This document shows, one piece after another, positions 1 to 25,309 of a stretch of DNA of 26,239 bases (its first letter is position 1; each line of letters opens with the position of its first letter). Source of the DNA: a virus; IMG/VR virus record IMGVR_UViG_3300032030_000014, positions 131,919-158,157 of that record; one strand, given 5' to 3'. The notes below the pieces were generated by a model. That model did not search any database. It saw nothing but the letters and a program-made list of their open reading frames with translations, and was not told the DNA's origin. Both the position numbers and the translations under genes were made by a program.

Positions 1-3000
1 TCATTGCATCTATCAACTATAAATATGCATCAATAAGAGCCATAATTTCATCATATTGTCTAATCCACTCTTCGGTTAGTGCCTAAGCCATAGTTAAAGT
101 TTCTTCTGATGCAGGAATAACTTCTTCAATCATCGTTTTAGCAAGAGCGTCATTCTATTTTGTTAAATCATCAAGCTATTGCTCTAACTCTCCCGCACCA
201 ACCTTAGCTTCTTCAGTAGCTTCCTAACGCATACTATTTAACCAGTCAATAGTTTCACCGGTCTCATGCATAAGAGTATCAGTTTCATTTTTAAAATCTT
301 CACCAGCATCTAAAACATCCTAAAAACTGGTGCCCCATGCTTCAGTATGATCTGTAACAGCAGTCTAATCTAACCAATATAATGCCCTATAATAACTTTC
401 ATAATCTTCTTGAATTAAAGCATTGTATTTATTATTAATATCTTCACGAAGTTTATTATAAGTTTCTTCATCGGCAATACGACCTTCGGCCCAAGCCATA
501 TCAAGATCTTTTAAAGCAGCATTACGCTCTTGTGTTAATTGAATAATCTTTTGAGTATAATCATTCGCTTGTCCAAGAACTAAGTTATATAAATCATTAT
601 TTTTCTTAGCTAAATCATCTTCAGCCGCATCAACCTATTCGCCATCTGCGGTATAAACATAGCCATAGTTGCCTTCGTTATCTCTTTGAAGACGAACTGT
701 AGACTTGGCGTTGCGTGCATCTTCAAGAGCTATTTCTGCTAAAAGAACTTCATAACGAGCTTTTGCAATATCCAATTCACTCTTACTAAGTTTATTTTTC
801 TATTGCAAACCTTCAATTTCAGCAGAAAAATTCTTTATTCTTAATTTAGCTGCATCATTATTTGTTTTATCTAAATCTTCAGCTAATTTTTTAATTAAAA
901 CATTAGTTTCATAAATCTAATTTGTTTTAGTCAAATATTCATCATCAAGGGCGTGCTGACGCTCTAAGGCATTATTAACCTAATCAAAACTGCCCCAGGC
1001 ACCAGATAAACGACGTTCTGAGTCTTGATAAATCTGGTTAATTCTATTTTCATAAATAGAATTAATAACCTCAAGATAAGCTTCAAAGTCAGCTTGCATT
1101 TCAGATTCAGCTTCAAGGAGAGCTTCTTTAGCAGGATAAAGAACAGCATTCTTCCATTCTTCTAATGCTGCCTCAGAAATACCATCAGCTAACAATTCCT
1201 AAAGAGTAGCCTCTGCATCAGCAACTTGACGGCGATACATTTCTGTCTATGCTTTAGATACTTCATATCCATTACGAGACATTTGTAATTGAGCATCAAG
1301 AATTTTACCAATAGCTTCATAGTCTGTCTATCTACCCAAGAGAGAAAGAACATTAGTTAGATGTTGGACGGTATTAAGCTAATGATCCATTTCATTAGTA
1401 ATGCGAGACATTTCATCCTTAACTTTACTAAGAACATTTTTATAATATTCTCGCATTTCCTCATTGATTTCCAACAAAGCATCTACACAACCATAAAGAC
1501 CATCTTGAGCATCTTTAATGGTCTAAACATAATCCTCTTGACTAATTTGTCCAGAAGAATAGAGAGATTGTGCTTCTTGATATGCGGAAGCCCAAGTACT
1601 GCCTTGATTGATAACTTCTGCTTTTGTATTTGTAACTCGTTTATCGAACCAAGAACGCATTACTTCTGGGACTTTATAGATATTATCTCCAAGGACTTTA
1701 ATAGCATATTCAATACGCTTTAAAGAGCGTTCACTAATTTCAACTTTAAGGTCTACTTTATATCTAAAATGCTCATAAACCTTAGCTTGTTGTTCATAAA
1801 GATTATCTAATAATTTATCAGATTGTTCTGTAAAAGTATTAATAGATTCATCATATTGATTTAATAGTTTTTGCATATACTCTTTAATGGCGGAAAGTCG
1901 ATCCCAATAAGCCGGATTGTTCTACTGTTCAATTGCGGTCATATTATTCCAAGTCTCAACATTTTTGTTCCACCAAGATTCTATTGCTTCTTCAATTTCA
2001 TCTCTATTAGCAATCTAGCCAAATTCATCTAACATTAAATCAAAATCAATACCAAGAACATCTTTTAATCCTTTCCAATCTTCTGTCTTACGACTTTCAT
2101 TACCATTTTCATCTTTTATTTTATACTAAATAGCTCCAACAACAGACGAAACAATTTTATTAAAATCTTTCTAAAGATTTCCGCCAGCCTTACCGGATGC
2201 GATAATCGCACCAAGATTTCCTCCACTTTGAAGAACCTTAGACAAATTATTCCAATCATCACCCGCAACAGCTTTTAAATAACGCTCATAAACTTGTTGC
2301 ATTTGTTTAAGCTTTGTGATTTCTTGCTCTAATAGAGCAATTTTATTTTTACCCCAAGCTCTATCTCGTGCCTTGCCAAGACGTTCATACTACTAAGAAA
2401 GACCTTCTAAAGTCTTATTTAATTCATCATAGCGATGTTCTTCGTCTTCTATAAGTTCTGCTTGACCAGTGGCCTCTTTTTCTGAGCCACCGCCTTTTTC
2501 ACCATCTTTTATTCCTGTTGTAGTAGGACCATAACTTGGCTGAATAAAATTAATTCCATTATCTTCATTTACTAAAGGAGAAAAAGCATCTGTAATAATT
2601 TCTGTCGAAGAAGTGTTACTATAATTTCCGGTTCCGGTATCTGTATATGAAGATATTTCATTAGTTTGCCCTTTATTACCACCTTTTTTAATTGGAGGTT
2701 TATTTTCTGTGACAATTTTAGTAGTTGCAGAACCAGATCCTTTAGTTCCCTTTATTGTATAAGTAGGAACATAACCAGTAACTTCAGCAGTATCTCCAGG
2801 GTAAGTAGTAGTAAATTTTTTATATAGAGGTTGATTTCTCTTCTATAAATTTCCAGCTGTGTCATAAAATTCAATTTCTTTAGAACCAGCATAAACCATC
2901 TACTCTTCTGTTATAGTAGTAGGTACGGTCATAGTTTGAGGATTATAACTTGTCTCAATATCTGCAGCAACATTAAGACCAGCCAATGTTGATTCAATCT

Positions 3001-6000
3001 ATTCTTTAGTCATTTTTCCTTTACTAATTAGATCATTAAAAGCATTAACTAAAGAAGTCTAATCCAATCCACCTGTTTCTAAATTTTCTGCAAGAGCAAT
3101 TTTTAATGCATTCCACTACTCTTCAAAACCAGACATATCTTCTCCGGCTTTTTCTAAATTAGTCTTAATATCTATAATTAACTAATCAGTAGCGACTTCT
3201 CTAAGCTTTAATATTGCTTCAACATTACCATCTAAAGCCTAAGTTAAATAAGCCGAATAAGTAGCATCTGTTAATAGACTCTAAGCAAATTCATCTGTTA
3301 AAACAGATATATCCATATTTAAAATATCGGCTAAATCTGTCTTAAGAGCATCCATAGTATTAGACCATTCAATACTATTTTTATCTGCTGAGCTTAAACT
3401 CTTTTTATAAGTTTCTAAGTTTTTATTAAGACTTAATAAACCTCTATCAAGTCTTTGATTTGCTATTGCTGCAGTTAAAGCAGATTTTTCCAATTGCTTT
3501 TCGCTAAAACCTGCTTCTTTCATTGCTTCTGACAAATTATTTTTTAATCTTTTAGCATAAGCCTCAGTTTCTTTTGCATCAAAGCCATGCTTTTCTGCCA
3601 ATTCAGCAACTGCAATAGAATATTTTAACGTCTCTTGTGCTGCAGCTGCAAGTTCTTTATTATTAGTGGTTAAAGCATGCTAATAAGCTTCTAAATCATC
3701 TGTACAAGACTCATATTTACTTGCCAAATCTTGTAAAGCTGCATTTTCCGCGAGAGTTTGAGCTTCTGTATCTATTCCAATTTCATTAAAACGCTATTTT
3801 ACATATTCAAGCTATTCTAATGAATCGGTTGCTGTCGCATAAGCAATGGCGTTAGCCTACATTGTTTCATAATCATTAACAACATGAGCTTCTTCACCTT
3901 CACCAATAATAGACTATCCAGATGAAATAAGACCTAAAGACCTTGCTCCTGCTGTTCCAGCTTCATTAATTTCTTGATTAGCGAATAAACCGATATAATT
4001 CTATAAATTTTTTTCAAAACCGACAGTAGATTCTTTAAATAATGCATCTTTAAATCCTTGTACATTTCCAACTAATTTATAAGTTCCATCTTCCATAATT
4101 TGGAAATAAGATTTAGCATGTTCTGAAAGTCCCTCAAGATTCTCAACAACATCACCAAATTTCAAAGATCCAAAAGCTTTATTTAAATTTTTAATATTTT
4201 CTTGAAGTGAAGAAATATCTTTTATCTAACTGCGATATATATCACCCAAAGAAATCTAATCTTTGATATATTGTTCAATACTATTAGCATCAATATTTGT
4301 ACCATTAAGATAATTATATAAATCCGCAAAAATCTATGCATCTTGTCCTGTTAAAGACATATTTTTAAAATCTTTAACATTTATTTTTGATAATTGTCCA
4401 GATAATAAATTAGTTAAAAGATCTTTATTTCCAGAAGAAAACTAAGAAGTCTTTTCAGCAATACTATTTAAAACATTGTTATATGTTTTAGGTAATTCAT
4501 TTTCTACTATAGATCGAGCTCTATTAGTAGCAACACTTTGTAAAACGCTATCTACAGATTTTTCAACATCTTTTCCTTGAATAGTATCATAATATTTAAA
4601 ATTACCATTTTGAATACCTTTAAAGGTTCCTGAAATTCCATTTAAATCAAAATATTCCTATAAAATTTTTTCTTTGTTTTCTGAATTAATTGTACTACTA
4701 ATTTCTGCATATCTTTTATCTATTTCATCCGCAGTCTATTCAGATAATATTTTACTTATAAAATTAGTAAAATCAGATAATCCTTTTTTTTCTGCCTCTT
4801 CCTAAAAGTCAGTATCATATAATAAACTGTTTGCTAAAATCTCAGAAGTATCACTAAAAGAAGAATTAAATTGTTTTGTATTATTAGCAGATTCTTTAAG
4901 ACTATCTTTAAAATCATGAAGCTCTGATAATGGTAAAATATTTTTAAATTCTTCTGCAAATCTATCCCAAGACATATTTGCATAATACTCAGCATTATCA
5001 AAAGCGGCATTTATATATTTTTCGTTATTTGTATTTGAAAACTTATCTTTAAGCTTATTATCATTTACCAGATTTTGCTAAGCAGAAAGTTTCATATTGC
5101 CATATAATGATATTGACTATAAACGATTAGCAGTTTTCTAAGCTTCCTTCTATATTTCTGCTAAATTTGTAATAATACGAACTCCATTGACATATTCGAA
5201 TTGCATTTTATTAACTAAATTTGGATATTTCTAAACAATGTCAATAGTAGCCTATTTTACTTCTGCTAAAGCATCATTCCATTCTTTTGTTCCTTTAACA
5301 CAATTATTTAATGTTTCAATAACTGAATCATAAGAATCTATAGTTGATTTTAATGATTCAGCATTTTGCTAAGCTTCATCAAAAGCATCTGATAAATCTT
5401 TTGCTGTTTTTTGAAATTTTTTCAGCTATCCTTCAGGAGATTTTTCTTTGATACCTTCAAAAACTTTAATAAGAACTGCTGCTACAGCAACAACAGCCCC
5501 TATAATTAAAGATATTTGCCAAAAAGCTAATTGAATTTTTGCTCCAGAAGCAGCAAGAGCAAGATTTGCTGTTGTCTATATTTTAGTCATATTTGTTATT
5601 AATGGCAAAATTGTTCCAACAGACATCATTAACTAAAGAGCTTTTTCTCCATTGGTTAAATCATCATTATTAAGAATATTACCTAAATTTTTTAAAGTAT
5701 TTATGGCTGAAGCAACACTCATTATTGTACTAGATAATGTTGACATAACTGAGCCAAAATCAAAAGAATATTGACCTAATGCTTTTAATTTTTCTCCAGT
5801 CTACTATGCACTATTACCTAGCTACGTTGTTTTATCTGAAGCATCTTGAGCTGCCTAAGCTGATCTTTGACAAGAGTCGGTAAACTATCCCGCTGCATTA
5901 CTTGCTTCTGCCGCACTCTATCCACTTTTCTAATAAGCAGCGGCCAATTTACCTTCCATATCTTCCAACTAAATCTAAAGATCTACCGGTAAAGCTTGTT

Positions 6001-8266
6001 TTAATTCAGAACTAAGCTATTTAATTCTATCAATGATATTCTAAAAAGCTTCTGGGCCATCTAAAGTGTTAATAGAAGAACCTAAATCACGAAAAGCCTA
6101 ATCTAAATTACCTATTAAATCCTCATTTTTGCTATCTAAGAGAGTTCCTTTTAAACTCTCTAAAGCAGGCATTTCAGTTGCTCCTATTTGTTTTAAATTA
6201 TTATATAACTCCTAACTTTCTTTGCTTGATAAATCTAAATTCTAAGGAATTTTTTTTGTAATAGATTCAAAAACAGCTGTTGCAGAAGAAGCAGCAGCCA
6301 TAGAGGTTGTCATTTTCTTTATTTCATTCTAATATTGCTGAATGTCTTCTGCTGAATAAGATTTATTTTTAGCGGCAGCTGCTCTACGAGCCTACTCACT
6401 TTGCTATTTTCCCAACTCGTTTGTCTGACGTTCTAATTCATCAGCTGTTTTTCCAGCAGTAATAGCTTCTTCACCCATCTATCTGTTCATATCTAATAGA
6501 AGCTATGCCTATTTCTATTCTTCCTCTGTCATATATTTAGCATTATCCAATAGTATTCCTTGCAAATTGGCTTGCTGCTTATAAGCTTCAGTCATAGCAC
6601 CACCCTAAGCAGTTCCCTATAATTCAGGAGAATTGGTCATTGCAAACAATTCTTTATTAGCCTATGCTCGTAAAGATTCTGCAGACTTCTATCCTTTTGG
6701 AGTCATCATAGCAATGCTTGAAACCATATTATTTATAGAAGTCTAAATCTATGCACTGAAAACAGAGGTTAAAACACTACCAAGAGTAAGTAATACTCCT
6801 TTTAATCCACCTATATTATCAATAAATTTATCCAAAAACGACAGAGTTTTTTCTAACCAATTTAATAATTTAATAAAAACCTTATCATCTAATAAATCTT
6901 GATAAATCGCCTAAGATGCAGCACGTACTCTTTTTCTTGCTGCTTCCCAACTTTCAGCATAAATATCTGCCTATTCTTGAAGAGTACCTTCAGAATTTGC
7001 TGCCAAATCCTAATTAGCAAGAATTTTATCATAATTATTCATAATTGCCATAAACTGAGCATACTGTCTAGTTCCGGCAACTGTTTCAGCTAAGGCAACC
7101 TTTTGAGCTTCTCCGATACTACTCCACTTTTCACTAAGTTCATCAAGAATAGTATCCATATCTTTTAAATCGCCATTGGCTTTAAGAATATTAACTCCAA
7201 CGGTATTAATAGCTTCTGAATATTTATTTAATGTAACTCCATCTTCAAGAGTTTCTCCAAGTTGAAGACCCTAAAAACGAGCAAACATCGTTTTAAAAGC
7301 AGTACCAACTACATCTGCACTTTGACGAGTTTCAGCAACAACAGTAGCTAATGCCGCAGTTGCTTTCTCATAACTTAAACCAACTGTATCTGCTACAGAA
7401 GCAAATTTCTATAAACCTTGAGCAATTTCATCAGAGCTTGATGCAGTTGCCGCACCTAATTTAGTAATAACATCTGCATAATACTCTAATGATTTAGAAC
7501 CATCATCAAAGTTATTCCAAATAGCAGTCATCTGACTTGAAACTTCTTCTGCACTCTAACGAGATACATTAGCTAATTTAATAGTTACATCTGTTCTCTC
7601 TTTTACAGCTTGATCATTTAAACCTTGCTGATAATAGATTAATGCGGCGTCGGTATATGCAGTTGTTGAAGTACTTAAAGCTTTAGCTGCACGATTTGCC
7701 TCATCCGCAAATTTAGCCATCTAATCAATAGATTGACCAGTGACAATTCTAATGTTATTTAAACTTTCATTTAAATCCTAAGCATAACCATAAGCACCTT
7801 GAAGAGCTCCCATAAATCCATGCAAAACACTAGAAGAAATTTGCCATCTTGCAGTATTCTTTAAAGTGGTAGCAAAATTGCTCAATAAAGCATTAGATCT
7901 TCTTAATGGAACTTCTGCCTACATAATAGACGAAGCTAATTTAGAAAATGCCTAAGAGCCTTCTGGACCTAAAGAAGATAAGGCAGCTCTATAATCACTT
8001 AACTTTAAACCACTTTTCTACAGCCCTTCATTAAATTTTGTTAAATCTAATTTACCTGTAGAAGAAGTAGCAGATTCCAACTAAACTTTTAACTATGCAG
8101 CCATCTATGTAGCTTTTTGAATTTCAGAAGATAATCCTAAAGAACTATCTTTTCTTTGAGCTGACATCATTAAATTGTCCAACTACTTCTATAAAGCCTA
8201 TAATTCTATCTTAGCTTTACTTGTATCAGCTGTCATAGCTAAATTAACATTTAATTGTTTAGCCAT
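1..8266 (-). CDS. Tail tape measure protein, 5' complete with the 3' end beyond the window start (more than 2,750 codons). It contains many in-frame TAG codons read as sense.
   Basis: The ATG at 8266-8264 follows an AAAGGAG site (rc of 8271-8284). The standard-code ORF fragments 980..1195, 1523..1876 and 3281..3601 and the start codon all share one minus frame (top coordinate = 1 mod 3). Hand translation of 8266-8078, 1876-1500 and 1195-600 shows only TAG interruptions. Five 60-nt stretches I sampled (2401, 4201, 5101, 6001, 7201) contain no in-frame TAA or TGA. The N-terminus translates as MAKQLNVNLAMTADTSKAKIEL*AL*K*LDNLMMSAQRKDSS, which is coiled-coil with TAG at Gln-like positions. Its length and its position after a chaperone gene fit a tape measure protein. 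Confidence 0.75.
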
Positions 8267-8378: not shown

Positions 8379-8903
8379 TTAACCTAATTTGGTTAGAACA
8401 TCTTTTAGTAATGTAAGCGAATTAGGATCAGCAATATTTTGCTTTAATTTTTCAGCATCTAATTCTAAATTACTATAATCAGTATTCATGGCATCAAGAA
8501 TACCATAAATACTATTACGATATTCATAAATATGTTCTGCGGTCTTACTCAACCACATTACAATACTTTTATATTCTCTTTGAGGCATTACCGTAAACAA
8601 ATCATCAAAAAATCCACTTCCCGCAAGTAAATCATACATTTTTGCTGGATCTTCTTTTTGTTTATCAGTAAAGTTAATATTTGTATATCTATAAGCAACC
8701 TCTAAATCCATAAACATAGACATTTTTGCTTCATTAATAAAATTATTTTCATCTTGACAATTATTTAATACAGATGTAATTAAATCCATTTTCTCCTGGA
8801 TTGGTAGATACTACTTAACTTCTACAATCTATCCATTCCAATCAAAAGAAGCGATATCTGTATTTTTGGTTAAACCAAGTTTTGTAAAGGCTATTTTTGC
8901 CAT
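8379..8903 (-). CDS. Tail assembly chaperone-like protein (174 aa, 2 in-frame TAG).
   Basis: ATG at 8903 with an AAAGGAG site 9 nt upstream. It is in the same frame as standard-code ORF 8379..8789 and ends at TAA 8379-8381. It is a small acidic protein directly upstream of the tape measure gene, which is the canonical chaperone position. No GT-type frameshift extension is evident. Confidence 0.5.
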
Positions 8904-8963: not shown

Positions 8964-10076
8964 TCAAATACTCTAAACTTTAGAAGCCGTAATAGAAACT
9001 TCGCCTAAAAGATTATCTGCTCTAGAAGCAGATTCTAATGCTTCTAAAATAATACTAGCAGTATCTTTAACAAAAATTGCATCTGAAGATGGATCGTTAT
9101 AAATTAAGTATTTAACAGGTAAAACTAACCCATTTTGATCTAATAATCCAGAACCTCTTAATTCATATATAAAACGCAAATGACTAAAATGTGTTCTTGT
9201 CTATTCAGCATAACCATGATTGTTATATAATATAGTATTCATACCTCTAAAAAACATACTTGCCTACTATTTATGTCCCATCTAAACTTCACTAAGAGCA
9301 CCAGTAACCGCCTTATATAAATTTGTATGTCCTAAATGTAAACCAAGAGCGGATAATTCTTTCTTTGAATCTTCGCTCCAAGCTTTAGAATTATAGTTCT
9401 TCGCTGAAAAAGTAGCATCTTTCATTAAAACTAGTAATCTTTCTACAGAAAAAGGCAATTCTTTGGTATAATTTAAAGTAATAGCTTTACCGCTAATATC
9501 AATTTTACCAGTGGCATTCCCTATCTATGTTGCTGCTTTTTTATGCTCAATATCTGCTAATTTTTTAATTAATTCTTCTGCAGCTTCATCTGCTAAATTA
9601 GATAAATTCATATTTTTATATGCCTAAGTAGCTCGAGTTCCAGAGCTCTAACCTCCAACTAAAAAAGATTCCATACTAATTGAAGTGTTTCCTCCAAGAA
9701 ATTCTCCTGCAGCTAATATAGCTGCCAAGTCTTCTTCAAAAATACTGTCCGCTTCTTTAACTCTTGCTACGCGTTTACCTCTAGCATCTGCTCGATGAAA
9801 AAGTGTACTCGGCTAAAACCCTTTTCCATGATACTAAGACTGAAATTGATAAGCTGTCTAAATCAATTCATAAAATTCAGATTCCATACTATCACCAATA
9901 ATACTATCTGATACTTTATTAAAATCTTTTGCTGCTATTTTTAAAGCCATTAGAATAGACTATAACTCTAAAGCCTCTCTTTTTGCTGTATTACGTTTCA
10001 TTTTTGCAATCATTGCATTATGTACATTTTTTAAAATCACAGAAAAATCTTCTGAATCACTATATAATGCAGCCAT
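8964..10076 (-). CDS. Hypothetical tail-module protein (370 aa, 12 in-frame TAG).
   Basis: ATG at 10076 with an AAAGGAG site. Hand translation runs continuously to TGA at 8964-8966 and includes standard-code ORF 8973..9179. All interruptions are TAG. Confidence 0.6.
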
Positions 10077-10148: not shown

Positions 10149-11246
10149 TCAATAATTCTCTTCAAGGAATGGTCTCTGGTTAGTATTGTATGCTGTTTGA
10201 GTATCAGCACTAAATACTGTTTCGGTATCAGGATTGACACCATTGTGATGTGTGCCAAGACGTTCAAAATCAGCAGCTGTTTCACCAAGCTCAAGAACCT
10301 GAATAGCAGCATAAACCTTCTTGGTCTTATCCCAACGAGTATAATCTGGGAAAGCATCCATTGTGAATGTAAAGGTAGAAGGATCGCCAGAAGATGCCAT
10401 TGTGAAGGTAAAGTTAGACTATACCTTGCAGTTAGGAATTACAAACTCAGCAGGCATATCTACACCATTTGTATCACGGAAGAGAGTAGAAGCTTCAAGA
10501 TAGAAGTTACCACCGAACTTATCAGGAGTAATGTTTACCTGGAATGCACCAGAAGTATATTCTACATAGTAGTCAACAAGAACTACACAGCCATTGGTGA
10601 ATTCACTTAAATCATTAATACGACGAGAATCATCAGAATGACCTTCATCAGTACCATATACTCTTACCTTCCAAACTTCTGCATTATTAGATCCAGTACC
10701 TGCAGCAATCTCAGTGGCAATTTCTGAAGCGATATAAGGCTCAGATTTAACTTCGCCATGATCATCAAGAACCATAATATAAATATAATCTTCTTTAGGA
10801 TTAAGCTATACAGGATCTCCGTTGTTTATTGGAGTAGAAACTGTTTTTACATATGGCTTCTTAGAAAGAGTAACTTCTACAAAAGGAGCATTGCTATTAG
10901 AATTATCAACACGAACTTTATCAGTCTGTTCAGTTGTATGCATAATAACTGGCTTATCCTTTGCATCAACAAGACCAGCACCAGTTAGAATTGAAAAACC
11001 AGCAGGAGAGATAAGAGCATCTTCCATTGTGAAGGTTACTGTACGCTCGCCTTCCCAAGCTACGAGACGGGCATTGCCACGACCGCCCTGTGCATAAACA
11101 GTTGTAGCTGCTCCTTCCATGCTGGAGGTTTTAAGACTATCAAAATAAAGAACTGGCTCGTTCTTATAGAATACCTTATTACCAATCTTCTGAGCAGCCT
11201 TTGCCTTAAGAACTACATCGCAAATCTCACGAACACCAAATTTCAT
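10149..11246 (-). CDS. Major tail (tube) protein, putative (366 aa, only 2 in-frame TAG, at 10806 and 10419).
   Basis: ATG at 11246 with an AAGGAGG site. The standard-code fragments 10806..11246, 10419..10775 and 10149..10400 are all in one frame. TGA stop at 10149-10151 is followed by a terminator. Position in the tail module, GC-richer codon usage and low TAG density suggest a highly expressed tube protein. Confidence 0.5.
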
Positions 11247-13990: not shown

Positions 13991-14606
13991 AATAAACCCC
14001 CCAACCAAATACATCCCAATTAGAGCGATACATTCCATCATAAGAAGTTCCTGTATCTCTAATCATTCTTCTGCGTTTATATAATCTTTGCATGTGGATA
14101 GATTGAGTTTTACACTCGTTCAATAACCCCATCAATTTTTGTAAATGATTTGCTTGAGAAGTCATTTTAAAATCGCTACCAGAATATTTCATTCTAGTAT
14201 TTTCAATAGATGTAACCTGTCTTTGAACCCAGGCTTGCATCATAAGAATAGCAATAATATTAATTTCTTCAGATGTTAATTCAAAATTAAATACTGAATT
14301 TTCAACTAATACCATTTCTTCTTGATCATTCGCAAGCATATTATCTAAATCAAAATTATCTCCCTCTAATTCATGCCAAACAATACCCAGAACAAAATCT
14401 CCATCTGTAACTTCACTACGAGGTTTTACAACTGTATTTATCGTATAATCAGATAAATTACATCTTGGAAATTCAAAACCAGGCAAAGCGTCAAGAAGTA
14501 AGGTCTGTAAATCCCTTAACGTATCTTCTGGAGTTAATTCCACATACATATCATCGGTAATTTTTCCGAGAAAGCGGTCGTAAATAGTGCTAAAAGATGT
14601 ATTCAC
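13971..14606 (-). CDS. Hypothetical head-completion or connector protein (211 aa, no TAG).
   Basis: Intact standard-code ORF with a GTG start at 14606 after an AAGGGGG site and a TAA stop at 13971. Confidence 0.5.
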   Translation of the reverse strand: MNTSFSTIYDRFLGKITDDMYVELTPEDTLRDLQTLLLDALPGFEFPRCNLSDYTINTVVKPRSEVTDGDFVLGIVWHELEGDNFDLDNMLANDQEEMVLVENSVFNFELTSEEINIIAILMMQAWVQRQVTSIENTRMKYSGSDFKMTSQANHLQKLMGLLNECKTQSIHMQRLYKRRRMIRDTGTSYDGMYRSNWDVFGWGVYYDRYSN

Positions 14607-14627: not shown

Positions 14628-15209
14628 TTATCCTTCGTCGGCTTTCTTACTAATTACTTTATAATTGGTAGTAGTACGACGTCCTGCCGCAGCTGTTGTC
14701 TAAGGCTTTACTCTACGCTCTGGCTGAGCTGGTTCAATAAAGTCGCCTTCTTCTGCTTTTTCTTCTTCAATATGAACAAGAGCCTTATCAACATCAAAGC
14801 CAGTCTTTTCCTTCAAAGCCTTTCTCTTATTCAAATCAGTCAAAGGAAGTTGAACGGCAAGTGTCTTAATAAGATCAATTACTCCCAATGGAGCAAAATC
14901 AAGGGCATCAAGAAAAGCATCTAAAGAACCACGTAAAAGCAAATCTCTAACCTGAACCTCAGACATATCATACTCTACTTCACGATGAACATTCAAATCT
15001 GAAGTAACAACTTCATCACCAATTTGTAGAAATTGTTCAAGCATTTCACGTCCACCTGGTTGATAAGTTAGTTTTTCTAACTCACCAAAGGGAATTTTCT
15101 TTGTCTCACCGGGAGCAAATTCACGACGAAGATTGCTCTCTGGAATTCTATACACTACTGAACTTGCACTTCTATTTTTTACTAAATACATTGTATCTTG
15201 CTTAATCAT
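14628..15209 (-). CDS. Hypothetical head-completion or connector protein (193 aa, 1 in-frame TAG near the C-terminus).
   Basis: ATG at 15209 with an AAAGGAG site. Standard-code ORF 14700..15209 continues through TAG 14700-14702 to TAA at 14628-14630. Confidence 0.55.
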
Positions 15210-15275: not shown

Positions 15276-15301
15276 CTTTTATTATTTAATTATTTATAAA
15301 A

Positions 15302-16453
15302 TCAAGGATTTTGACCAGAAATAGGCTGATCGTCACTTACGCCACCATCAAGATAGCCACTCTTGCGGCCATCATAAGTTGCGATATTGCCATCAACGCC
15401 ATTGAGATTCCAATTAATCATCTGGCCAAGGAGTGATGTATCAACATAGCAGCAAATGTTGTTGGCAAGGATAGCAGTTACGCCAACCTTCTTGTAAACC
15501 TGGACTTCACGAGAACGGTCATAGTTATTGAATTCATCAACAATTGTGCCACCCTCGAAAGCGATTTTTACAGGCTTGCCATCAACGCCAGTAGGAATTA
15601 CCCAGCAATAACCTGGATCAATTACCTTACGAGTATTAGTTTCATCCTCAAAGCCTTGCTCAAGAATGATAACTTTTGTGCCCTTATAGTTTGCAAGACG
15701 ACCAGTATTCCAAAGCTCGGTCTTCATAGCTTCAGTATAACGCCAAGCTTCGTTAGGAATCATCTTTACAGCAAATTCATAAGTACAATAAATAGTAGGA
15801 GTACCGTATGCGGAAGCAATCTGGATAAGACGATCCATTGCACCCTCATCGAAACCAACAGCAGCAACACGGTTTGCTGGAGGAAGCTGATTGATAGAAG
15901 CCTTAAGGGCTGCAGCTACCTCTTTATAAATAAGTTCGTCCATACCTTCCATAATGATACGAGTTACTTCTGCGAAGTCAACACGACCATCAAGGAACTC
16001 TTCGAAGCCGATCTGAGCGGCTCCGCCGATGGCACTGGTACGTACTTCGAAGGCTTCCTTCTCGGCAGGACCGAGCTTGAAGACTTCGTAGATACCAGCA
16101 AGTCCAACACGTGTTACGAACTGCTTTGCACGGGCACGTGTATTAAGTGGACGACGGAATACAGGCTTATCACCCTGAGCAAACTGCTTAACTTCAGCGA
16201 ACTGATTGTAAGATTGCTCAACTTTCTTTGGAAGGACTTCATCAAGAGTCTCTTCAATCATAGAGAAAATAAGGTTCTTATTTTCACGATACTGTGCGTA
16301 AGTGCCAGCCAGCTCATTAAGCTCATTACGGAGAGTTTCATTAAGAGCAGCATAAGAAAGCTGCTGATCACCGTAAGAATAAGCTACAGGAGCAGAAGGG
16401 TCGGCCTTAGCAACTTGCTTCATTAAAGCAACTAAATTAGCTCTATCTAACAT
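15302..16453 (-). CDS. Major capsid protein, putative (383 aa, no TAG, GC-richer).
   Basis: Intact ORF with a GGAGAG site and a TGA stop followed directly by a terminator. It sits downstream of the portal/scaffold block. The sequence has a capsid-like feel, reminiscent of gpE-type or HK97-fold coats. This rests on my reading of the protein, not on a database search. Confidence 0.5.
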   Translation of the reverse strand: MLDRANLVALMKQVAKADPSAPVAYSYGDQQLSYAALNETLRNELNELAGTYAQYRENKNLIFSMIEETLDEVLPKKVEQSYNQFAEVKQFAQGDKPVFRRPLNTRARAKQFVTRVGLAGIYEVFKLGPAEKEAFEVRTSAIGGAAQIGFEEFLDGRVDFAEVTRIIMEGMDELIYKEVAAALKASINQLPPANRVAAVGFDEGAMDRLIQIASAYGTPTIYCTYEFAVKMIPNEAWRYTEAMKTELWNTGRLANYKGTKVIILEQGFEDETNTRKVIDPGYCWVIPTGVDGKPVKIAFEGGTIVDEFNNYDRSREVQVYKKVGVTAILANNICCYVDTSLLGQMINWNLNGVDGNIATYDGRKSGYLDGGVSDDQPISGQNP

Positions 16454-16471
16454 TACTCTTCTCTCCTTTCA

Positions 16472-17536
16472 TTAAGCGATACGCATAATCTTTACGCCAC
16501 GCTGATTATCAGGCATGGTGTAAATCTTAACAACCTGCCATACCATGTCGCCAGAAGCGGCACCATTTGTATCGGCAGAAGCCTTTTTTGTCTTGCAAAG
16601 AATACCCTTATCTCCAACATAGAGAGGATCTCCAACAGAAAGGGTCTCGGTAAATTCACCAGTAGAAGAATTTACTGCAAGATTAATTGTATTAGTGGTG
16701 AAAATATCACCAACGTTAGTCTTGAATACACGAGGAACCATCTGAGTGCCGGTGGGCATTCTCTTCTCGCGGTAAAGACCAAGGCGTCTCCAAGGATCAT
16801 TAGTGAAGCCCCACTCGTAGTAATCTTCCTTATCCTTGGTTACATCTTCCATCATATACTCAACAGGAACCTGAGTCTTAGAAGTACCATTTTCATCAAG
16901 CTCATACTGTTTGCCATTGTAAGTAAATACTTTTGCTTCATGGGTCTTAGCTGGGACATAACCATCTTCGCCCTCGGTGCCAGAGGCAGGAGTATCAGTA
17001 ATTGTGGTTGTGCTTACAGCATAACGCTTATCACCAATAGTAACTGTCTGTCCTTCAATATCAAGAGTGACATACTGGTTGAGAGTCATTGGCTTTTCTC
17101 TTACAGGATTACCATTATCATCAACAAGATTGAGTCTATGCCAATCCTTATATTCAATCTCAGCATTCTCATAATCATATGGACTATAAATACGAGCCTG
17201 ATAATCATCCTTTAACATTGCAAATTCGCAATCCCACTGCTTACTTCCATCTGGAAGGTTACGATAAAGCTTGATTTCGTTGTAAACGAGCATCCATTCA
17301 CCTGCGCCAGTGAAATCTACGAGACCAATGCCATTACCATTAGCAGCGTAATCATATTTTACGAACTGACCCTGCTCGAGAATTTCAATACTTGGATCAG
17401 CGGGTAACTGGGCATAAATTTGAGCTGTTCTCTGAGCAGAAAGATGATTTGGTTCAACTTGACCGTAGCCGAATTCAACATAACTAGCTTGAGACTGAAT
17501 AGGCATACGAGTCTTTAAAAAATCTTTAAACATCAT
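16472..17536 (-). CDS. Abundant head protein of unknown type, possibly a decoration or second capsid protein (354 aa, no TAG, GC-richer).
   Basis: Intact ORF starting ATGATG after an AAGGAGG site, ending at TAA 16472. It lies between the scaffold and capsid genes. Confidence 0.45.
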   Translation of the reverse strand: MMFKDFLKTRMPIQSQASYVEFGYGQVEPNHLSAQRTAQIYAQLPADPSIEILEQGQFVKYDYAANGNGIGLVDFTGAGEWMLVYNEIKLYRNLPDGSKQWDCEFAMLKDDYQARIYSPYDYENAEIEYKDWHRLNLVDDNGNPVREKPMTLNQYVTLDIEGQTVTIGDKRYAVSTTTITDTPASGTEGEDGYVPAKTHEAKVFTYNGKQYELDENGTSKTQVPVEYMMEDVTKDKEDYYEWGFTNDPWRRLGLYREKRMPTGTQMVPRVFKTNVGDIFTTNTINLAVNSSTGEFTETLSVGDPLYVGDKGILCKTKKASADTNGAASGDMVWQVVKIYTMPDNQRGVKIMRIA

Positions 17537-17557
17537 CGTTCAGTTTTCCTCCTTTTA

Positions 17558-19123
17558 TTAGTTTAATGTTTTTGCGGTATTTATGGCAGCTCTTACCCAA
17601 GCTGGAGTAGAGCTGTCATCTCCTTCGTCTCCATTGAGGTTATAAGTAGTTGGACCTTCGGGGGTATTGCCTTCCTCGGTCTTGAAACTAACCTTATTGC
17701 GGAAACAAATGACTGAAAGCTTTGCCTCAATATCATCAAGAGAATATTTATCAATGTTGTCAATAACATCTTTCTTATCCTCATCTGATAACATATAAAA
17801 TTCAGCAATCTTAGCTTCTTTTTCTACGCGTTCTGCCTTAGACTTAAATTTGCGTAAAGAAGTAAGTTCACTATTAAGACCCTCAATTGTTGTATTAAGG
17901 GTGGCAACCTGGGCTTCAAGATTAGAATAATTAGTCTGAAGTTCAACATATTCAGGAATTTCATCTAATGTATCATAAGAATATTTCTTATTCTTCTTCT
18001 TTTCTTCCTCATCATCATCATCAGACTTTTTATCTTCTTCTGAATCATCTTCAGATTTCTTTTCTTCTTCTTCACCAGATTTGCCCTTTTCTTCCTCTTC
18101 TTCATCCTTTTTCTTGGCATATTCAGCATTATATGCTGCAACAGCCTCGGCAGAAAATTGTGGTTCTGCGGCAGGAACATAAGTCTTTGTTACTTCAACA
18201 AGATTTTCATCTGCCTTGAAACCTTCTGCTTCTGAAATGGAGAAGTTTAAACGATAGTATTTTGCTTCTGCACGATCATACAGAATAACAAACTTTTGCC
18301 CGCCATTCTCTTCGAAAATACCATCAATAGAATACTTGGAGCACCAGCTATCATTCTCGTCTGGATATTTATCAACTATATACTAATGAATAGCAGACCA
18401 AAGTTCGTCGCCAATTTCAACTGCATAAGTATTAAACACTTTCGTTCCTCCTTCTGTAATTAATTCTTTTACTTCATTTATCATTGCAAACATTTTCTTT
18501 TTAAAAGAATCATCAATGACAAGTGAAAAAGATGTAATTTGTGAACCTTCAAAGCAAGGTTCAAATTTTTCTCCTAAAATGCAAAGTTTTTCAACAAATG
18601 CTTCATTAATAATGAAAAATTCAAGGTCGCTATTCTTATCTTTTGTCCAATCAGCTTTTAAAGTTTCTTCATCAAGTTCCATAGACTAATTATTGCCATT
18701 TGTCTTAATTCTTTTTGCTTCTGGATAAACATGATCCCAAACATAACCTTCAGTACATAAATACTCATGTTCAGACTATGCATCATCTATATAAGTAGCA
18801 AACCAAATCTTTGCATCTGTAGAAACAAAACCATAAGGTGTGGTTGTATCTGTGATTTTCCATTCACCACCAGAAATATCTATCTGACGATTGTGTTCTT
18901 CAAAATCTTCATCTTTATCATTGAAAAAACCAACAATTGGACATCCTCTTAAACTGGGTGCCATTTCTCTCGCAACATCCTTAGTAATAATACTACCATT
19001 GCGATTTGGTTCATCACCAACATAACACACCTTAATCAATACCTTTGAAATAAAAGGACTGATTTTTGTACTCTCAATAAATTCAATAGGAGAATTTAAT
19101 TTTAATACACTTGAATGTTTCAT
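17558..19123 (-). CDS. Head-maturation/scaffold fusion protein (522 aa). The N-terminal globular domain may be a prohead protease and carries 3 TAG. The C-terminal acidic coiled-coil scaffold domain carries none.
   Basis: ATG at 19123 with a GGAGGG site. Standard-code fragments 18776..19123, 18383..18682 and 17558..17794 are in one frame. Hand translation from 18776 to 17794 is continuous with no TAA or TGA. The central stretch reads DEEEEEKGKSGEEEEKKSEDDSEEDKKSDDDDEEEKKK, followed by coiled coil. Stop is TAA at 17558. Confidence 0.55.
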
Positions 19124-19134
19124 TTCAACCCTCC

Positions 19135-20817
19135 TTAGCTCATAGATTCTTTGTTCTAAATTGTTTTTTCACTTTTCTAATCATCTGCTTTCTCTGGACG
19201 CCCTGCTTTTTTCTCTTCAGTGCCAGCCGCAGATTTCTTATTAGAACCAGAATTATTCTGTTCTCCTGTCTTACTTTGATTATTTGTATTACCATTTTGT
19301 CCTGTTTTGCCCATTAAATCTGCCAAGTTCATTGTAGAACTTAAAAGATTTGGTAACATCAATTCAGCAAGATGAAGAACTTCATTCTCAAAGTGAGCAG
19401 TATTCAAAATAAAACTCTGTGAATGTCCAAGAGCAATCTGAGGTAGAATCTTGGAATGACCCATCTGGGACTATTCCTTATAAAGTTTAGACATATTCTA
19501 ATAATTATATTGTGTTGTTTCCAACATATAAAATCTAAACGCATACTTCTTTTTATTCGTATTCTTATCCTATACTATTCTATCAAATAAAATCACGAAT
19601 TGCAATAGTAAATTCCGCACAGTGGACTCATCTTCTAAAATTGACTTCTCTAATGCTAAATTACCTTCAGTATTAAAGACATTTTTAGAAACACCTGCGG
19701 CATTATAAACAGTTCGTTCTACTTTTGCTAAATCATCTCTTGTTGTTGTAGTATTTTTATCAGACATATCAATACTTTCAACATCGGCAAAAGTAGTTAA
19801 AACATCAACGCCAATAGCTCGCTGTAGCATCGCCACGGCATTGTTATGAATATCCTAAGCTTCATCAACATCAAAAATTAAATCGCCATTCTTATCCAAT
19901 GGCAACTTTTGAATAATAATTTTTAATAACTGTTGCATTTGCTTACGTCTGTCTAAGTCCTAAGCCTCATCCAAATCCAGCAAATAAGGAATAACATTTA
20001 TAAATGCAGGAATATCACTGCCATTTATATTGAACTTAAAAGCCAATCCAGGAGTAAGCAAATACCATCCTCCTGGCAAACCTTTATAATCGGGCTACAA
20101 CTTTCCTTGTTTAAATAACATATATCCTTTTTTAAATTCATCAGGAAATAAATTTAAAATTCTCATACGATAATTTACATCACCAAAGGTATCAAAAAAA
20201 GCCATATTAAATTCAATAGCAGGCATACCTTTTACAGAATATCGAGTGCGGCAATACTCAATTGGAAGTTCTTGAATAACTACTGAATCATCTGATGGAA
20301 CTAAATATCCATAATAACATCCATCAATTAAAACTTTCAAAGCCATTTCTCCGCAAACTTTCTTTATATAACTATTATCTAAAAAATTTAATAATTTAGA
20401 AAAATCTTTTAAAACTTTCTCTTCTTTTACTGTATCATCTAAAATCTCTGGCACAATATACCAATCATAGCGATACATAAAAGCAACATACTAACATAAT
20501 TTCTAATAAATACCACTTGTCTTATAAAAGAAACGAGAAAAGGCACGAAGTGTATTATAATCATTCTCTAAAAGGGCTTGATATAAACGACGCTTATCCG
20601 CAAATGGGGCTCTTGGCGCAACTGATTTTAAAGCACCAAGTTCTAATACTGCATCATCAAGTTGTTTTACTCCAACTTTAATTTTCTTAAATTCATTATC
20701 AGCAGTACGATATTCCACAATGCGGCCATTGCTTATCATATCAAAACCCTTAGAATAAATGGTCTCTTTGCGGCTTGGCGCAACTAAGCCATCTTTGGCA
20801 AGTTTATCAAAATCCAA
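19135..20817 (-). CDS. Portal protein, putative (560 aa, at least 8 in-frame TAG).
   Basis: TTG start at 20817, 7 nt after a GGAGG site, and the only start codon after the upstream in-frame TAA. Standard-code fragments 20503..20817, 20095..20478, 19570..19836 and 19177..19464 share one frame. I scanned the gaps and found only TAG. The C-terminal tail is Gln/Asn/Lys-rich and disordered. Stop is TAA at 19135-19137. Size and position after the large terminase fit a portal. Confidence 0.55.
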
Positions 20818-20838: not shown

Positions 20839-21195
20839 TTAATAGCCAGCCTTATGCATTATATAATCATAAGAAATCAAATTCTCTTCTGTATAGGGAA
20901 TTTCAATTAGTTTAAAATCATGTAAAGCACAAAATCTTCGCTTTCGGTTATCATTGTATTGCTACTAATAAAGACCACGTTTTCCACCAAATTTGGAACT
21001 GGCCTCGTAATGCTATTTACCCTAATATTCTATAATAAAGTCAATATTTCCATCATCATCAAATACAACAAAATCAAAACGAAGAGGTCTGCCGCTGGCC
21101 GCAACTAAATCAGGAAAACTATATTCCTCTTTAAAATTAAATCCTGCATCTATCAAAATTTCTTCTATTCTAATTTCTCCTCTTGACGCACGCAT
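20839..21195 (-). CDS. Vsr/DUF559-like endonuclease-fold protein (PD-(D/E)xK superfamily), about 118 aa with 4 in-frame TAG. Possibly a free-standing homing endonuclease.
   Basis: ATG at 21195 directly after the terminase TAA, with an AGGAGAGG site. Translation reads MRASRGEIRIEEILIDAGFNFKEEYSFPDLVAASGRPLRFDFVVFDDDGNIDFIIEYQGKQHY. The FDFVV...IEYQGKQHY stretch resembles the Vsr/DUF559 core. Stop is TAA at 20839-20841. Confidence 0.45.
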
Positions 21196-21208: not shown

Positions 21209-22963
21209 TTAATTAAGAAACATCCATTCTTTAGCATTAAATTTCTTTTTCTTCTTTTTATTATCTTCTTCAACTTTTATGTAATATAATCCATATGAGA
21301 ATGCTGAAAATTTATCCTTTTTAATACCTTTATTAGCCTGTTTTAGAATAATATTAGTACCTTCATTTTCTTCACGGAGATTCATCATCTCTTCTTTTAA
21401 TATGGAAGTTAGGGTAAATGGTTTTAAATAAATTGACCTTTCTTCTGGTTTCATATTCTAACCAACTTTAGTGCCTAATAATTTTATCTTAGCGTCTCTT
21501 TCATCAATTAGCATTTTTACTTTTCCAGAAGATAGATTAACCTATGTATTTGCATAGACCTCTGTGTTGATTGGGGCATTCGCCTTGAGAATATAAATTG
21601 CATTCTCTTCACAATCAGCAGTTCTATACTTTTTATAAGTTTCTACCGCATCATCCTGGGTGCCGCCATATACGCCGAAATCTGGCAAAGTATCTCCAGT
21701 CTCTGGATCAATAGATGGCTTTACCATATAGTCAAGTAAACCAATACCAAGACCATTACCATCAATTACGATGCGGCGAGCTTTATATTTATAATATAAT
21801 TTCTTTAATTCAAGAGCCTAATCACCAAAATGTTCATCGGTGATGGTGTAAATATTTACCAAAGATTTTAACGAAGGACCTTGCGGCTGCGGCGTTACCT
21901 TGAAAACGCAAACCACTGTATCGCAGCCCTTACGACCAACATCAACAGAAAGAATATAATAAGCATTTTTACCAATGCGTCCAGATGCTTCATATTCTGG
22001 CTATTTCAAAATTCTGCCGCGATTAAACATTTCAGAATTGAAATAAGCATCTTCAACGTCACCAGTCCAACGTGATTCATATTCACGTTCAAAAGATGCC
22101 TCATTGAAAGTTCCTTCATCTTTCTGGTCTTGAATAAATGTTTTACTTTGTAGTCCTACTTCAACAGGAAGTCGCCAAGTTCCTCCAATTACCATACATC
22201 GTTCAGGCTGCATAACCATACGAACCAAGAAACCAATCAGTCTTGTATAAGGTAATGTGCCTTTATAACCGGCAGTAGTAACGAAAACTTGGCTTTTATT
22301 TAGTGTTTCTTCTGGATGTTGCTGACCGTCCATTGCACGTCTTGAAATAGCCATAATAGGGATAATGACTTCACGCAAGATTTGGTCATCAACACCGACG
22401 CATTCTTCTACAAGTCCACCATGACGACGCTTACCACGAGAACTTTCTCTCGCCGCAATGTTATCAATAGTTGAACTATTTTTAAAAACGTATTTACAAT
22501 AATCTTTTCCTTCAAGAGTTTTACCTCTACGTCTATCAATCTCTCTGTCAAAAGATGGTATCAAAGTGCAAATTTCATTTACTTTATCTTTTAGAATACC
22601 GGCAGCCTGTTCTTTACCACCAGAAGTTACAAACAGATTGGCTCTTGGATAAAGTACGCATCTTACCATCAATGCCATAACAGATAGGAAGGATTTAGAA
22701 TAAGCACGAGGGAACACCGCATACACATATTGATGACGCATAACTGAACGCAAGAAAACTCTTTGATAAAAATAAAATTTAAATTCTCCTTCTTTTTGTT
22801 CTGTCCGCGTCCCTCGGACCATAAAATCAACAAATAAATCCGGATACTCTCTCCAAAACGCAATATAATCTCTTAAAAAAGGTTTAATTGCTTCAACACG
22901 TTCTTCAGAAAGTCCGATTTTTTGTCGTTTAGTATTTAAATTTAATAAGTCTTGAAGAGCCAT
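21209..22963 (-). CDS. terL: Terminase large subunit (584 aa, about 5 in-frame TAG).
   Basis: The ATG overlaps the upstream TAA as TAATG at 22963, with GGAGG upstream. Standard-code fragments 22001..22963, 21542..21727 and 21209..21454 share one frame. Hand translation between them is continuous. Stop is TAA at 21209-21211. Size, the N-terminal ATPase-like region and the C-terminal acidic nuclease-like region, and coupling to a small upstream gene all fit a large terminase. Confidence 0.7.
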
Positions 22964-24204
22964 TATGTATTACCTCCTCGTTCATTTTCTTTAGCAAGAA
23001 AATCCAGGAGGTCCGCATCGCTGGCTTCCTCATTATCTAAGAATTCACTATAATCTTCAAAATCCTAATCGTGAAGCTATCCTTCTAATGCTTCAATATC
23101 GTCCTCAAGGAGGCCGGTATCAACTTCACCATCATCAGCTGCGGCCGCAGCCTCATCTTCTTTTTGGTTAGCTTTAATTGCTTCTTCAATAAGATTTCCA
23201 AGATTTGTTTCTTCTGTAATAAGTGTTTTAGTATAACGTTTCATATCCAAGATAGTCTAATCAACTTTATCATTTGGTTCATCAACATAATATCTTGGAA
23301 TAAATCCATCTTTTTCACACATCATTACAAGTTCACCAACAGAATCAACATATTCACCATTTTCAGCTTTATTCTAAGCCGCAGTAAATTTACCAGACTT
23401 CATTAACTAATCATAAACTCTTGACATCTTTTGGAAACCCTCAACATCACCAATATCAATGAGTTGATTTGCCTTTAAAGACGTTTTACACAACAATTTC
23501 AAGTTATCTTCATGTCCGGCACCTTGTATATCATATGAATTCATCATATCATTATATAACTATTCAAGACGAACCCATTCTTCTGGCTTATATGTTTTAC
23601 CCCATTTTAACCGTAGATAAATTCTATCTTCATCGGTTAAATCAATTTCATCATCTTCAGATGCACCAGATTGTTCAGCAAAATAATCTTCATCACCGGA
23701 TGCCAGAAAAGGATTTTTTGGTTCTGGTTCAGTAAATACCGGTGGTGGTGCATTCTCCGGAACAGTAAAAGCCGCACGCTCATTTGCCAAAGCAATTTGT
23801 TGAGCATCATACCCCTACTGTTTCATAGTTTGTTCTCTTTTTGATTTTTCTAACTCTTGTAAAAATTCACTATCTTTCCAACGATAATCTCTATGTTGCT
23901 TTAAACGCATTTTGGAAAGGTATCTACCAACAATAGTTAAACCCGTTACTTTACTTTTATCTTTTGCGTATGTCGCCATCAACTTATTCCACTCTTCTGG
24001 GATATAAGGCACATCGGCTTCCTGTAAAATCCAGAGATAGGTATCAGGATTCCAGTTATCAACGTGCATTGTCATACACTTTTTACAAATCGGGAATTTG
24101 CCGTCATTAGGATATTTTTCTAAATTATTTGAAGAATAAAACTAATCAGCAGCCATTGTTCGATTACATTTTTCACAATAGTATTGTTTACTTCCATCAG
24201 GCAT
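22963..24204 (-). CDS. Zn-ribbon protein, candidate terminase small subunit (413 aa, 7 in-frame TAG, very acidic C-terminus).
   Basis: ATG at 24204 with a perfect GGAGGA site. Hand translation runs continuously through fragments 23815..24075 and 23560..23790 to the TAA that overlaps the terminase ATG. The N-terminus reads CEKC-x25-CKKC. The plus-strand ORFs 23164..23406 and 23469..23735 are antisense artefacts. Confidence 0.4.
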
Positions 24205-24244: not shown

Positions 24245-25309
24245 TTAAGTTATAGACTTTTGCCCAGATTTAGCATTTCTACAAGATTTGCATATACTGT
24301 AAAAGCCATCTTTACTGGTTTTGTTTTTACTGAAATATTTATTATGAGCTAATTTAATTTGCCCACAACGACTACATCTTTTATACCGACCTTTTTGAAT
24401 ATTTAAATAATACCAAGATAAATATTCATCCTCAGCCGCAGATGCGATTAATTTAGGTATTTTATTTCTCCATAAACTTGAAATATATTCTACACTATGT
24501 TTTATACCAAATTCCTACTATAATATTTCTTGTATATCTATATTTTGCAATCCATCTATTTTACATTCTAATAATCGCATATATAAGGGATAAGGTTCTA
24601 AGGCTTTATCGCAAATTGTTTCAAAATCATAAAGCATATACCAAGTATCACCTTCAAATTTATCCCAAGTGTCTTGTTTTAAACGAGAATAATTACAAAG
24701 AATTGCTTCGCAAACTTTAGGGTCCATTAATGAGAGTCCTTCTGGAATTGGATAACCTTCATCATCAAAATCTTTTGTTTTATCAATTAATTCTATAAAA
24801 TGTGTTGAACGAGTAATTTTATTAAATATAATAGGACATCTATAACCATTTTTTATAACATATTGGTCTTTACGCATTTCAATTAAGGCTTTTTTCATTA
24901 CAAACTTGTCTTTTCCTTCAACAGTCTTTAACTTTGCTTCCCAAATATCAATGGTTTCTTTTAACTATTTAAGTAATGGTATTTCTTCTAAATCTTTTTC
25001 GGTTATCTTTACTTTTGGCTAAAAAATTGTCTATTTGTTTTCTGTAATTAAATTATAAATTCCATCTTCGCCATTTTCAAGTTGAGCAACAAGACCTTCA
25101 AAGGAAGTCTCTCGTTTATTTACTGTAGTCATTCGATTTTCAGTAAGAATTTTTTTCTCCTTTTTCTCTTGCTTCTCCATAGCAAAAATAAGATAGTCTG
25201 CTAAAATCTCTAAATATTTTTCATTAGGATTAGGATTTTCTTCTAAAATTTTCTAAACTAACTCATTTCTTTCTTCTGGAGAAGTTAAAGTGTAATCAAG
25301 TTTAATCAT
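24245..25309 (-). CDS. Hypothetical protein with a C-terminal C4 Zn ribbon (354 aa, 6 in-frame TAG). First gene downstream of the leftward promoter, so it could be a regulator or DNA-binding protein.
   Basis: ATG at 25309 with a GGAGG site. The frame runs continuously through standard-code ORF 24518..24898 and the TAG pair at 24518 and 24515 to TAA at 24245-24247. The C-terminus reads RCSRCGQIKLAHNKYFSKNKTSKDGFYSICKSCRN. Confidence 0.5.

Follow-up and report, generated by a model that had tools for sequence, protein, structure and literature searches.

The DNA analysed here is a stretch of 26,239 nucleotides (nt) from a virus, positions 131,919 to 158,157 of IMG/VR record IMGVR_UViG_3300032030_000014, and is referred to below as the window. 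Its minus strand carries a run of genes for packaging, head and tail functions, in which TAG is confirmed as a sense codon. Comparison with related phages and with near-identical strains shows glutamine (Gln) to be the residue that TAG encodes in these late genes, i.e. genetic code 15. The reading we favour, with a probability of about 0.92, is that UAG is read as Gln across the late operon while termination is left to UAA and UGA; that the decoder would be a phage tRNA(CUA) encoded in a tRNA array; and that the early genes are kept essentially free of TAG. This case is an instance of an established phenomenon in a very abundant lineage and leaves knowledge of phage recoding unchanged. The genome concerned is probably of an SPbeta/YonB-like type and about 190-200 kb long; it stems from gut or rumen metagenomes, and its host probably belongs to the Bacillota.

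TAG is a sense codon in the late genes

Stop-to-stop frames on the minus strand were recomputed with TAG, TGA and TAA each made a sense codon in turn. Under the standard code (code 11) there are just 22 open frames of at least 100 amino acids (aa) and these cover 43.3% of the window; with TAG as sense the coverage rises to 98.5%, by comparison with 44% for TGA and 54% for TAA. The readings with TGA (code 4) or TAA as sense were rejected, as the frames stay closed. An earlier note on this DNA, made from its letters alone, had anticipated a rise in coding density that would be peculiar to the reading of TAG as sense, and such a rise was found. Reading through TAG yields 18 contiguous genes, from position 25309 down to 1 (g1 to g18, Table 1), with a Shine-Dalgarno motif ahead of most of the starts. 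They contain 170 in-frame TAG codons and not one in-frame TAA or TGA, and the 17 genes that are complete in the window end at TAA (12) or TGA (5). The claims that the frame is kept across the TAGs and that genes stop only at the other two codons therefore hold for the whole set; the gene ends singled out in the earlier note were also located as described, with the TGA of the capsid gene g8 (15302) followed by a weak terminator and the TAA of the 354-aa protein g7 (16472) followed by a Shine-Dalgarno motif.

The largest gene illustrates the point. The tape measure gene g18 starts with an ATG at 8266 and stays open, as a single frame, for the 8,266 nt up to the end of the window, in agreement with the 8.2-kb frame proposed previously. 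Its 2,755 codons, of which 97 are TAG, make up the longest frame obtained with TAG as sense. The odds of such a frame being open by chance are e^-115 to e^-389, as estimated from how often TAA and TGA occur in the other two frames. The motif IEL*AL*K*LDNL, where asterisks denote stops of the standard code, was found in the N-terminus of its product as the earlier note had it. A 163,725-nt metagenome contig in ENA includes the window with 100% identity, and genes publicly called on it are already read across TAG, with full-length products, for example a terminase of 584 aa and a tape measure protein of 3,152 aa.

Single-base codon differences were classed in seven near-identical strain contigs that overlap these genes (identity mostly 96-99%). 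The synonymous fraction was 0.834 upstream of each gene's first TAG and 0.829 downstream of it, with 0.841 in the genes that have no TAG and 0.128 when the frame was shifted by one base. Beyond the TAGs, then, frame and coding constraint are those seen before them, which rules out pseudogenes and premature termination. The idea of decaying pseudogenes or a defective remnant, with the TAGs as true premature stops, draws on the fact that the standard code breaks nearly every gene; however, only one stop type of the three interrupts the genes, 170 times and without any frameshift, purifying selection is as strong after TAG as before it, and TAGs exchange with Gln codons among strains. Further, the same pattern recurs in at least 52 related contigs and in assemblies made independently from many samples. 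We regard decay as so improbable that it can be set aside.

An artefact of sequencing or assembly, such as a modified cytosine that is read as T and turns CAG into TAG, is equally hard to credit. TAG and CAG do differ by a single C/T exchange, and CAG is scarcer in the late genes than in the early ones. Against this, the TAGs recur in independent assemblies from different studies, where they are fixed or polymorphic depending on the site; they are restricted to late genes on one strand, while the capsid and tube genes keep their CAGs; and relatives encode a matching tRNA(CUA).

Glutamine at TAG and a probable decoding tRNA

To identify the residue, TAG was translated as X, the products were aligned by tblastn with related phages, and the residues found opposite X were compared with empirical substitution profiles of the 20 amino acids. 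MT836163, Enterococcus phage EF5 and the recoded phage phAss-1 were tested alone, and a pool of four standard-code phages was formed from MT836163, Enterococcus EF5, Bacillus vB_BcoS-136 and Lactococcus PMBT69. Gln came first throughout, with a margin of at least 9.9 log-likelihood units for the single phages and of 56 for the standard-code pool. A set of 22 standard-code members of the family in IMG/VR, with capsids 75-87% identical to that of the window, covers 113 of the TAG sites; here the majority residue was Gln at 44 sites, glutamate (Glu) at 15 and lysine (Lys) at 10, the likelihood margin for Gln was 81, and the commonest codons opposite TAG were CAA (596 cells) and CAG (248 cells).

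The strain contigs point the same way. Codon differences that touch a TAG number 31, of which 21 are exchanges between TAG and CAG and a further five are two-step exchanges between TAG and CAA. The remainder involve AAA (two), TAT, TCG and TAA; none involves GAG or GAA, and TGG is absent although it is a transition neighbour of TAG. Counted as Gln, TAG makes up 170 of the 415 codons for this residue in the late genes and raises Gln from 3.0% to 5.0% of codons. The proposal of Gln in the earlier note is supported by each of these comparisons, with one correction of detail: of the two TAGs read in a motif given as EDW*K*L, the first is indeed a TAG, but the actual sequence is EDW*KQL (in g11) and its second Gln is not encoded by TAG.

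The earlier note had seen neither a suppressor tRNA nor a release-factor gene; in agreement, the window contains no tRNA (ARAGORN, Rfam), and no release-factor-like protein was detected among its proteins in PHROG and Pfam searches. The 20 kb upstream are likewise devoid of tRNA genes. A decoder was sought at the level of the family. A generic scan of IMG/VR for a CUA-anticodon pattern, together with a family scan anchored on the sigma-like protein, gave one recoded family contig with a tRNA(CUA) among the matches listed; a family-specific pattern found tRNA(CUA) on five contigs classed as recoded. With the DUF2828 protein that flanks the tRNA array as an anchor, 80 array loci were obtained. 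The closest relative in IMG/VR (L363), which is recoded and has a major capsid protein 95% identical to that of the window, carries two tRNA(CUA) genes beside tRNA-Gln(UUG) and tRNA-Gln(CUG); a recoded 192-kb relative in ENA (L393) carries one, in the same layout. The Rfam tRNA model confirms the tRNA(CUA) genes of these closest relatives with 38 to 58 bits, and an Rfam scan found only tRNAs, and no ribozymes, beside the CUA tRNAs. Among contigs of known coding status with at least five array tRNAs captured, tRNA(CUA) is carried by 10 of 11 recoded members and by one of six standard-code members (Fisher p = 0.005). Both closest relatives have a tRNA(CUA), and across the family its presence is linked with recoding.

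The CUA tRNAs of L363 and L393 are 75-76 nt in length, have no long arm and carry G73, a discriminator base also seen in the tRNA(CUA) of the first sublineage found. Most of these G73 tRNAs have a non-Watson-Crick 1:72 pair; one L363 copy and the neighbouring tRNA-Gln(CUG) have A1-U72. In L393 a Thg1-like gene (5284-6114) lies about 350 nt upstream of the tRNA(CUA) (6461-6535), which has a U1·U72 mismatch; Thg1 is the tRNA-His guanylyltransferase family, which repairs tRNA 5' ends. The array of one sublineage also encloses a gene for a 349-aa membrane protein (L300, 11911-12960), which by eye we take to resemble a dicarboxylate/amino-acid:cation symporter.

Synteny places the array about 55-65 kb upstream of g1, past the start of the 163-kb contig. 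Homologues of the DUF2828 flank were not found on the contigs of 163,725, 188,616 (ENA ERZ28612953; same species, 99% identical to the window) and 142,498 nt, by a homologue search and in two cluster listings. By analogy with its relatives, this genome may plausibly have a tRNA(CUA) elsewhere, one of the two options that the earlier note had named.

Several observations weigh against a reading with Gln and a phage tRNA. No tRNA(CUA) occurs in the 46 kb of this genome that was read (the window and 20 kb upstream), the 163-kb contig may not contain the tRNA array, and five of 15 recoded contigs have no CUA tRNA in the stretch captured. Conservation of Gln is somewhat lower at TAG sites (17-42%) than at CAA and CAG sites (25-57%). 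Some relatives (L316, L322, L326, L337, L350, L353 and L385), like phAss-1 (L016, 17577-17667), have CUA tRNAs of 89-95 nt with a long variable arm, the nearest neighbours of which are tRNA-Ser, tRNA-Leu and tRNA-Tyr. The nearest neighbour of one L363 tRNA(CUA) copy is tRNA-Gln(CUG), and no clear assignment emerges for the other copy or for those of many relatives. Since pairwise identity and nearest neighbours give no more than a hint of the isotype, they were not counted as evidence for Gln.

The missing tRNA could mean that TAG is read without help from the phage, through a host suppressor tRNA, through weak or absent release factor 1, or in a host that itself uses code 15; recoded phages that lack a detectable suppressor have been reported by Borges et al. 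(bioRxiv 10.1101/2021.08.26.457843). We consider this unlikely, as the closest relatives have tRNA(CUA) and its presence tracks recoding; in addition, the avoidance of TAG in early genes is expected if the cell starts on the standard code but is unexplained if the host reads TAG as Gln. No bacterium is known to use code 15.

A shade less likely again is that TAG is sense but specifies another residue, either Glu or Lys, or serine, leucine or tyrosine by way of a class-II-like suppressor, or that its meaning is ambiguous. After Gln, the residues met most often opposite TAG are Glu and Lys, the long-armed CUA tRNAs resemble those for the other three, and crude similarity cannot assign an isotype to the CUA tRNAs. 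However, Gln leads all other residues by 56 to 81 log-likelihood units, 26 of the 31 strain changes at TAG involve Gln codons, with AAA, TAT and TCG rare and GAG/GAA not seen, genuine Gln is likewise replaced mostly by Glu or Lys, and it is the short-armed G73 form of the CUA tRNA that the closest relatives have.

For the reading as Gln with a phage decoder, the course of an infection would be as follows. The early genes, which are essentially free of TAG and so translatable by the host's unmodified standard-code machinery, would be expressed first. The tRNA(CUA), from the array in the early/middle region some 55-65 kb away, would presumably be charged with Gln by host enzymes and would compete with the host's release factor 1 at UAG. 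Full-length late proteins, from the sigma-like g1 onwards, would then appear only once the suppressor tRNA had accumulated, and the synthesis of late proteins would thereby be tied to an earlier phage function.

Early genes, uneven TAG use and code switching

The early block was read over 20 kb of the source contig and comprises 46 small genes. It has one TAG in 4,405 codons, versus 170 in 8,261 codons for the late genes (p = 1.6e-30). This lone early TAG (source contig L391, 7095-7286) is probably a real stop because it lies 3 nt ahead of the next gene's ATG; if it does still stop translation, the codon has two meanings in one genome. Gln is written as CAG 85 times and CAA 35 times in the early genes, by comparison with 71 and 174 times respectively in the late genes, and this depletion of CAG in the late genes fits an origin of TAG mainly from CAG.

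The two blocks meet at a divergent promoter region that occupies the 137 nt upstream of g1 (25310-25446) and forms the right-hand boundary of the recoded module, as the earlier note had placed it; the plus-strand genes beyond are free of TAG. The recoded block opens with g1, and since a site that matches the sigma-70 consensus at 12 of 12 positions precedes this gene, the TAG-containing g1 transcript could be made by the host RNA polymerase at the start of infection. In the early block outside the window (L014, about 11370-19000), intergenic repeats of about 50-100 nt, 75-90% identical to one another, lie between the small genes and may be early promoters or regulatory sites.

TAG is also used unevenly within the late genes. 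In the window the proteins expected in high copy number in the virion have few or none (no TAG in g7 or the capsid gene g8, two in the tube gene g15), and across 52 recoded relatives the frequency per 100 codons is 0.08 for the capsid, 0.11 for g7 and 0.09 for the tube, as against about 3 for the tape measure and g14. The g7-g8 stretch (15302-17536) has a G+C content of 0.42, by comparison with about 0.32, and writes its Gln as CAG.

The 52 relatives are those that look recoded among 80 capsid-anchored loci in IMG/VR; about 25 of the 80 are intact when read in code 11. Recoded and standard-code members with capsids 85-87% identical to that of the window co-occur in one dataset (IMG 3300045988), so the family has undergone a change of code. 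Taken together, these patterns allow the tentative and rather doubtful suggestion that TAG may act as a 'costly' Gln codon tuned gene by gene, shunned by high-copy virion proteins, carried at about 3% by low-copy ones (tape measure, g14) and placed in a sigma-like g1, so that a late transcription factor would itself need the suppressor tRNA. The family would also have moved repeatedly between codes 11 and 15, among members with capsids 75-87% identical to that of the window. The exclusion of TAG from high-copy proteins across the family and the sigma-like first recoded gene behind a host-type promoter may each go beyond the known literature; both are compatible with a regulatory role for such a codon.

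The family is large: a relative of g1 is encoded on at least 150 contigs in IMG/VR, and homologues of the array-flanking protein number in the thousands in public data. The tail of the tape measure, a distal early gene of 126 aa and the early gene of 179 aa proved too variable to serve as family anchors in IMG/VR. With recoded and standard-code members at close range and a tRNA(CUA) that tracks the switch, the family offers a test bed for genetic-code change. In GTDB, family contigs of up to 175 kb are binned in metagenome-assembled genomes labelled Bacillota, Clostridia, Lachnospiraceae and 'Mollicutes'; this binning probably reflects composition rather than integration and does not prove the host.

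Gene content and relation to known phages

The window is the late operon of a large siphovirus of SPbeta type, as its genes carry the Yon and Yom families together with a YonF-type terminase. The YonG, YonD, YonB, YomW, YomV and YomU families follow one another in this order, as taken from precomputed Pfam assignments on identical public calls, and tblastn identifies the YonF-like terminase; a Pfam search of our own with six core window proteins gave no matches. Coordinates and assignments are collected in Table 1.

Table 1. Genes and promoter-like sites of the window and its right-hand margin (aa, amino acids; E, E-value; sites are matches to the sigma-70 consensus only)
Feature	Coordinates	Strand	Size, TAG codons, stop	Remarks
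First early gene	25447..25986	+	179 aa, TAG-free	
Divergent promoter-like site	25386-25414	+		11/12 sigma-70; for plus-strand genes
Promoter-like site	25339..25367	-		12/12 sigma-70 (TTGACA-17-TATAAT); upstream of g1
g1, sigma-factor-like, C-terminal zinc-ribbon/HNH-like tail	24245..25309	-	354 aa, 6 TAG, TAA	PHROG 5767 'sigma factor' (E 9e-55); Shine-Dalgarno motif upstream
g2, YonG_N family	22963..24204	-	413 aa, 8 TAG, TAA	PHROG 3314; PF27269 on identical public call; possibly small terminase or packaging partner
g3, large terminase (YonF-like)	21209..22963	-	584 aa, 4 TAG, TAA	tblastn to terminases of Bacillus, Lactococcus and SPbeta-type phages
g4, HNH homing endonuclease	20839..21195	-	118 aa, 4 TAG, TAA	PHROGs 9084, 559; start from public call
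g5, portal	19135..20739	-	534 aa, 10 TAG, TAA	PHROG 2739 'portal' (E 1e-69)
g6, YonD_N-family head protein, acidic coiled-coil C-terminus	17558..19123	-	521 aa, 3 TAG, TAA	PHROG 3313; PF27290; possibly scaffold or protease
g7, head-module protein	16472..17536	-	354 aa, 0 TAG, TAA	Gln mostly CAG
g8, major capsid protein (YonB family)	15302..16453	-	383 aa, 0 TAG, TGA	PF27364 YonB; PHROG 4088
g9	14628..15209	-	193 aa, 1 TAG, TAA	
g10	13971..14549	-	192 aa, 0 TAG, TAA	
g11	13679..13990	-	103 aa, 3 TAG, TGA	EDW*KQL motif
g12	12606..13682	-	358 aa, 6 TAG, TGA	
g13, YomW-family virion protein	11998..12588	-	196 aa, 3 TAG, TAA	PHROG 6123; PF27256
g14, YomV family	11267..11998	-	243 aa, 9 TAG, TAA	PHROG 4051; PF27211
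g15, tail tube protein (YomU_Tube)	10149..11246	-	365 aa, 2 TAG, TGA	PHROG 2729; PF27173; strong terminator-like hairpin follows (10139-10110)
g16	8964..10076	-	370 aa, 12 TAG, TGA	No family match
g17	8379..8903	-	174 aa, 2 TAG, TAA	Faint YomO match; possible tail chaperone; terminator-like hairpin nearby (8339-8311)
g18, tape measure	1..8266	-	first 2,755 of 3,152 codons, 97 TAG	PF10145 PhageMin_Tail; runs off left edge

The same structural families, in the same order, are found in SPbeta-like phages and in those of the Lactococcus 949 and Bacillus Tsamsa types, all of which use the standard code.

TAG recoding in gut phages was reportedly described by Ivanova in 2014. The use of TAG for Gln in the late genes of gut phages whose hosts keep the standard code, along with suppressor tRNAs and close relatives that differ in code, has since been documented (bioRxiv 10.1101/2021.08.26.457843), and for crAss-like phages metaproteomics has borne out code 15 (Peters et al. 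2022, PMC9523058). The window shares much with these code-15 gut phages (crAss-like, Lak and Firmicutes-infecting): TAG is confined to late genes, Gln stands opposite TAG, stops are TAA and TGA, the standard code suffices for the early genes, a tRNA(CUA) is encoded by the phage (here shown in relatives) and close relatives differ in code. It differs in that its lineage is of SPbeta/YonB type and about 190-200 kb in size, and in that neither a release factor 2 nor a 'code-change module' turned up in the portions of this genome that were read.

A distant relative already described is phAss-1, a phage of the proposed 'Phassvirus' group with TAG reassigned to Gln and three tRNA-Sup-CTA genes (Babkin et al. 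2023, PMC10607447); it is filed at NCBI under 'Caudoviricetes code 15 clade'. Its large terminase, major capsid protein and portal are 42%, 50% and 40% identical to those of the window respectively; it also has a giant tape measure, TAG read as Gln in the terminase, portal and tape measure genes, a tRNA(CUA) inside or near a large tRNA array, and standard-code relatives such as Enterococcus phages EF1 and EF5. In contrast to the window, its tape measure gene lies upstream of the terminase gene, its genome is about 136 kb rather than about 190-200 kb, and the tRNA(CUA) sequences differ. By blastn the window gave a single match of about 380 bases to phAss-1, at 67% identity, whereas members of Phassvirus share 80-86%. 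The window phage falls outside Phassvirus because this nucleotide similarity is negligible and the gene order differs.

Pipelines that assume the standard code fragment this family, and code 15 is required for its annotation. The terminase g3 provides an example: its N-terminal half matches only PHROG 15503 and its C-terminal half only PHROG 24618, both labelled 'unknown function', and these two groups probably go back to terminases that the standard code had cut at TAG.

The HNH gene g4 sits between the terminase and portal genes, and one strain has an additional gene for a GIY-YIG endonuclease at this place (L009, 4554-5264). The terminase gene of Enterococcus phage EF5 is itself split, with an HNH gene at the interruption.

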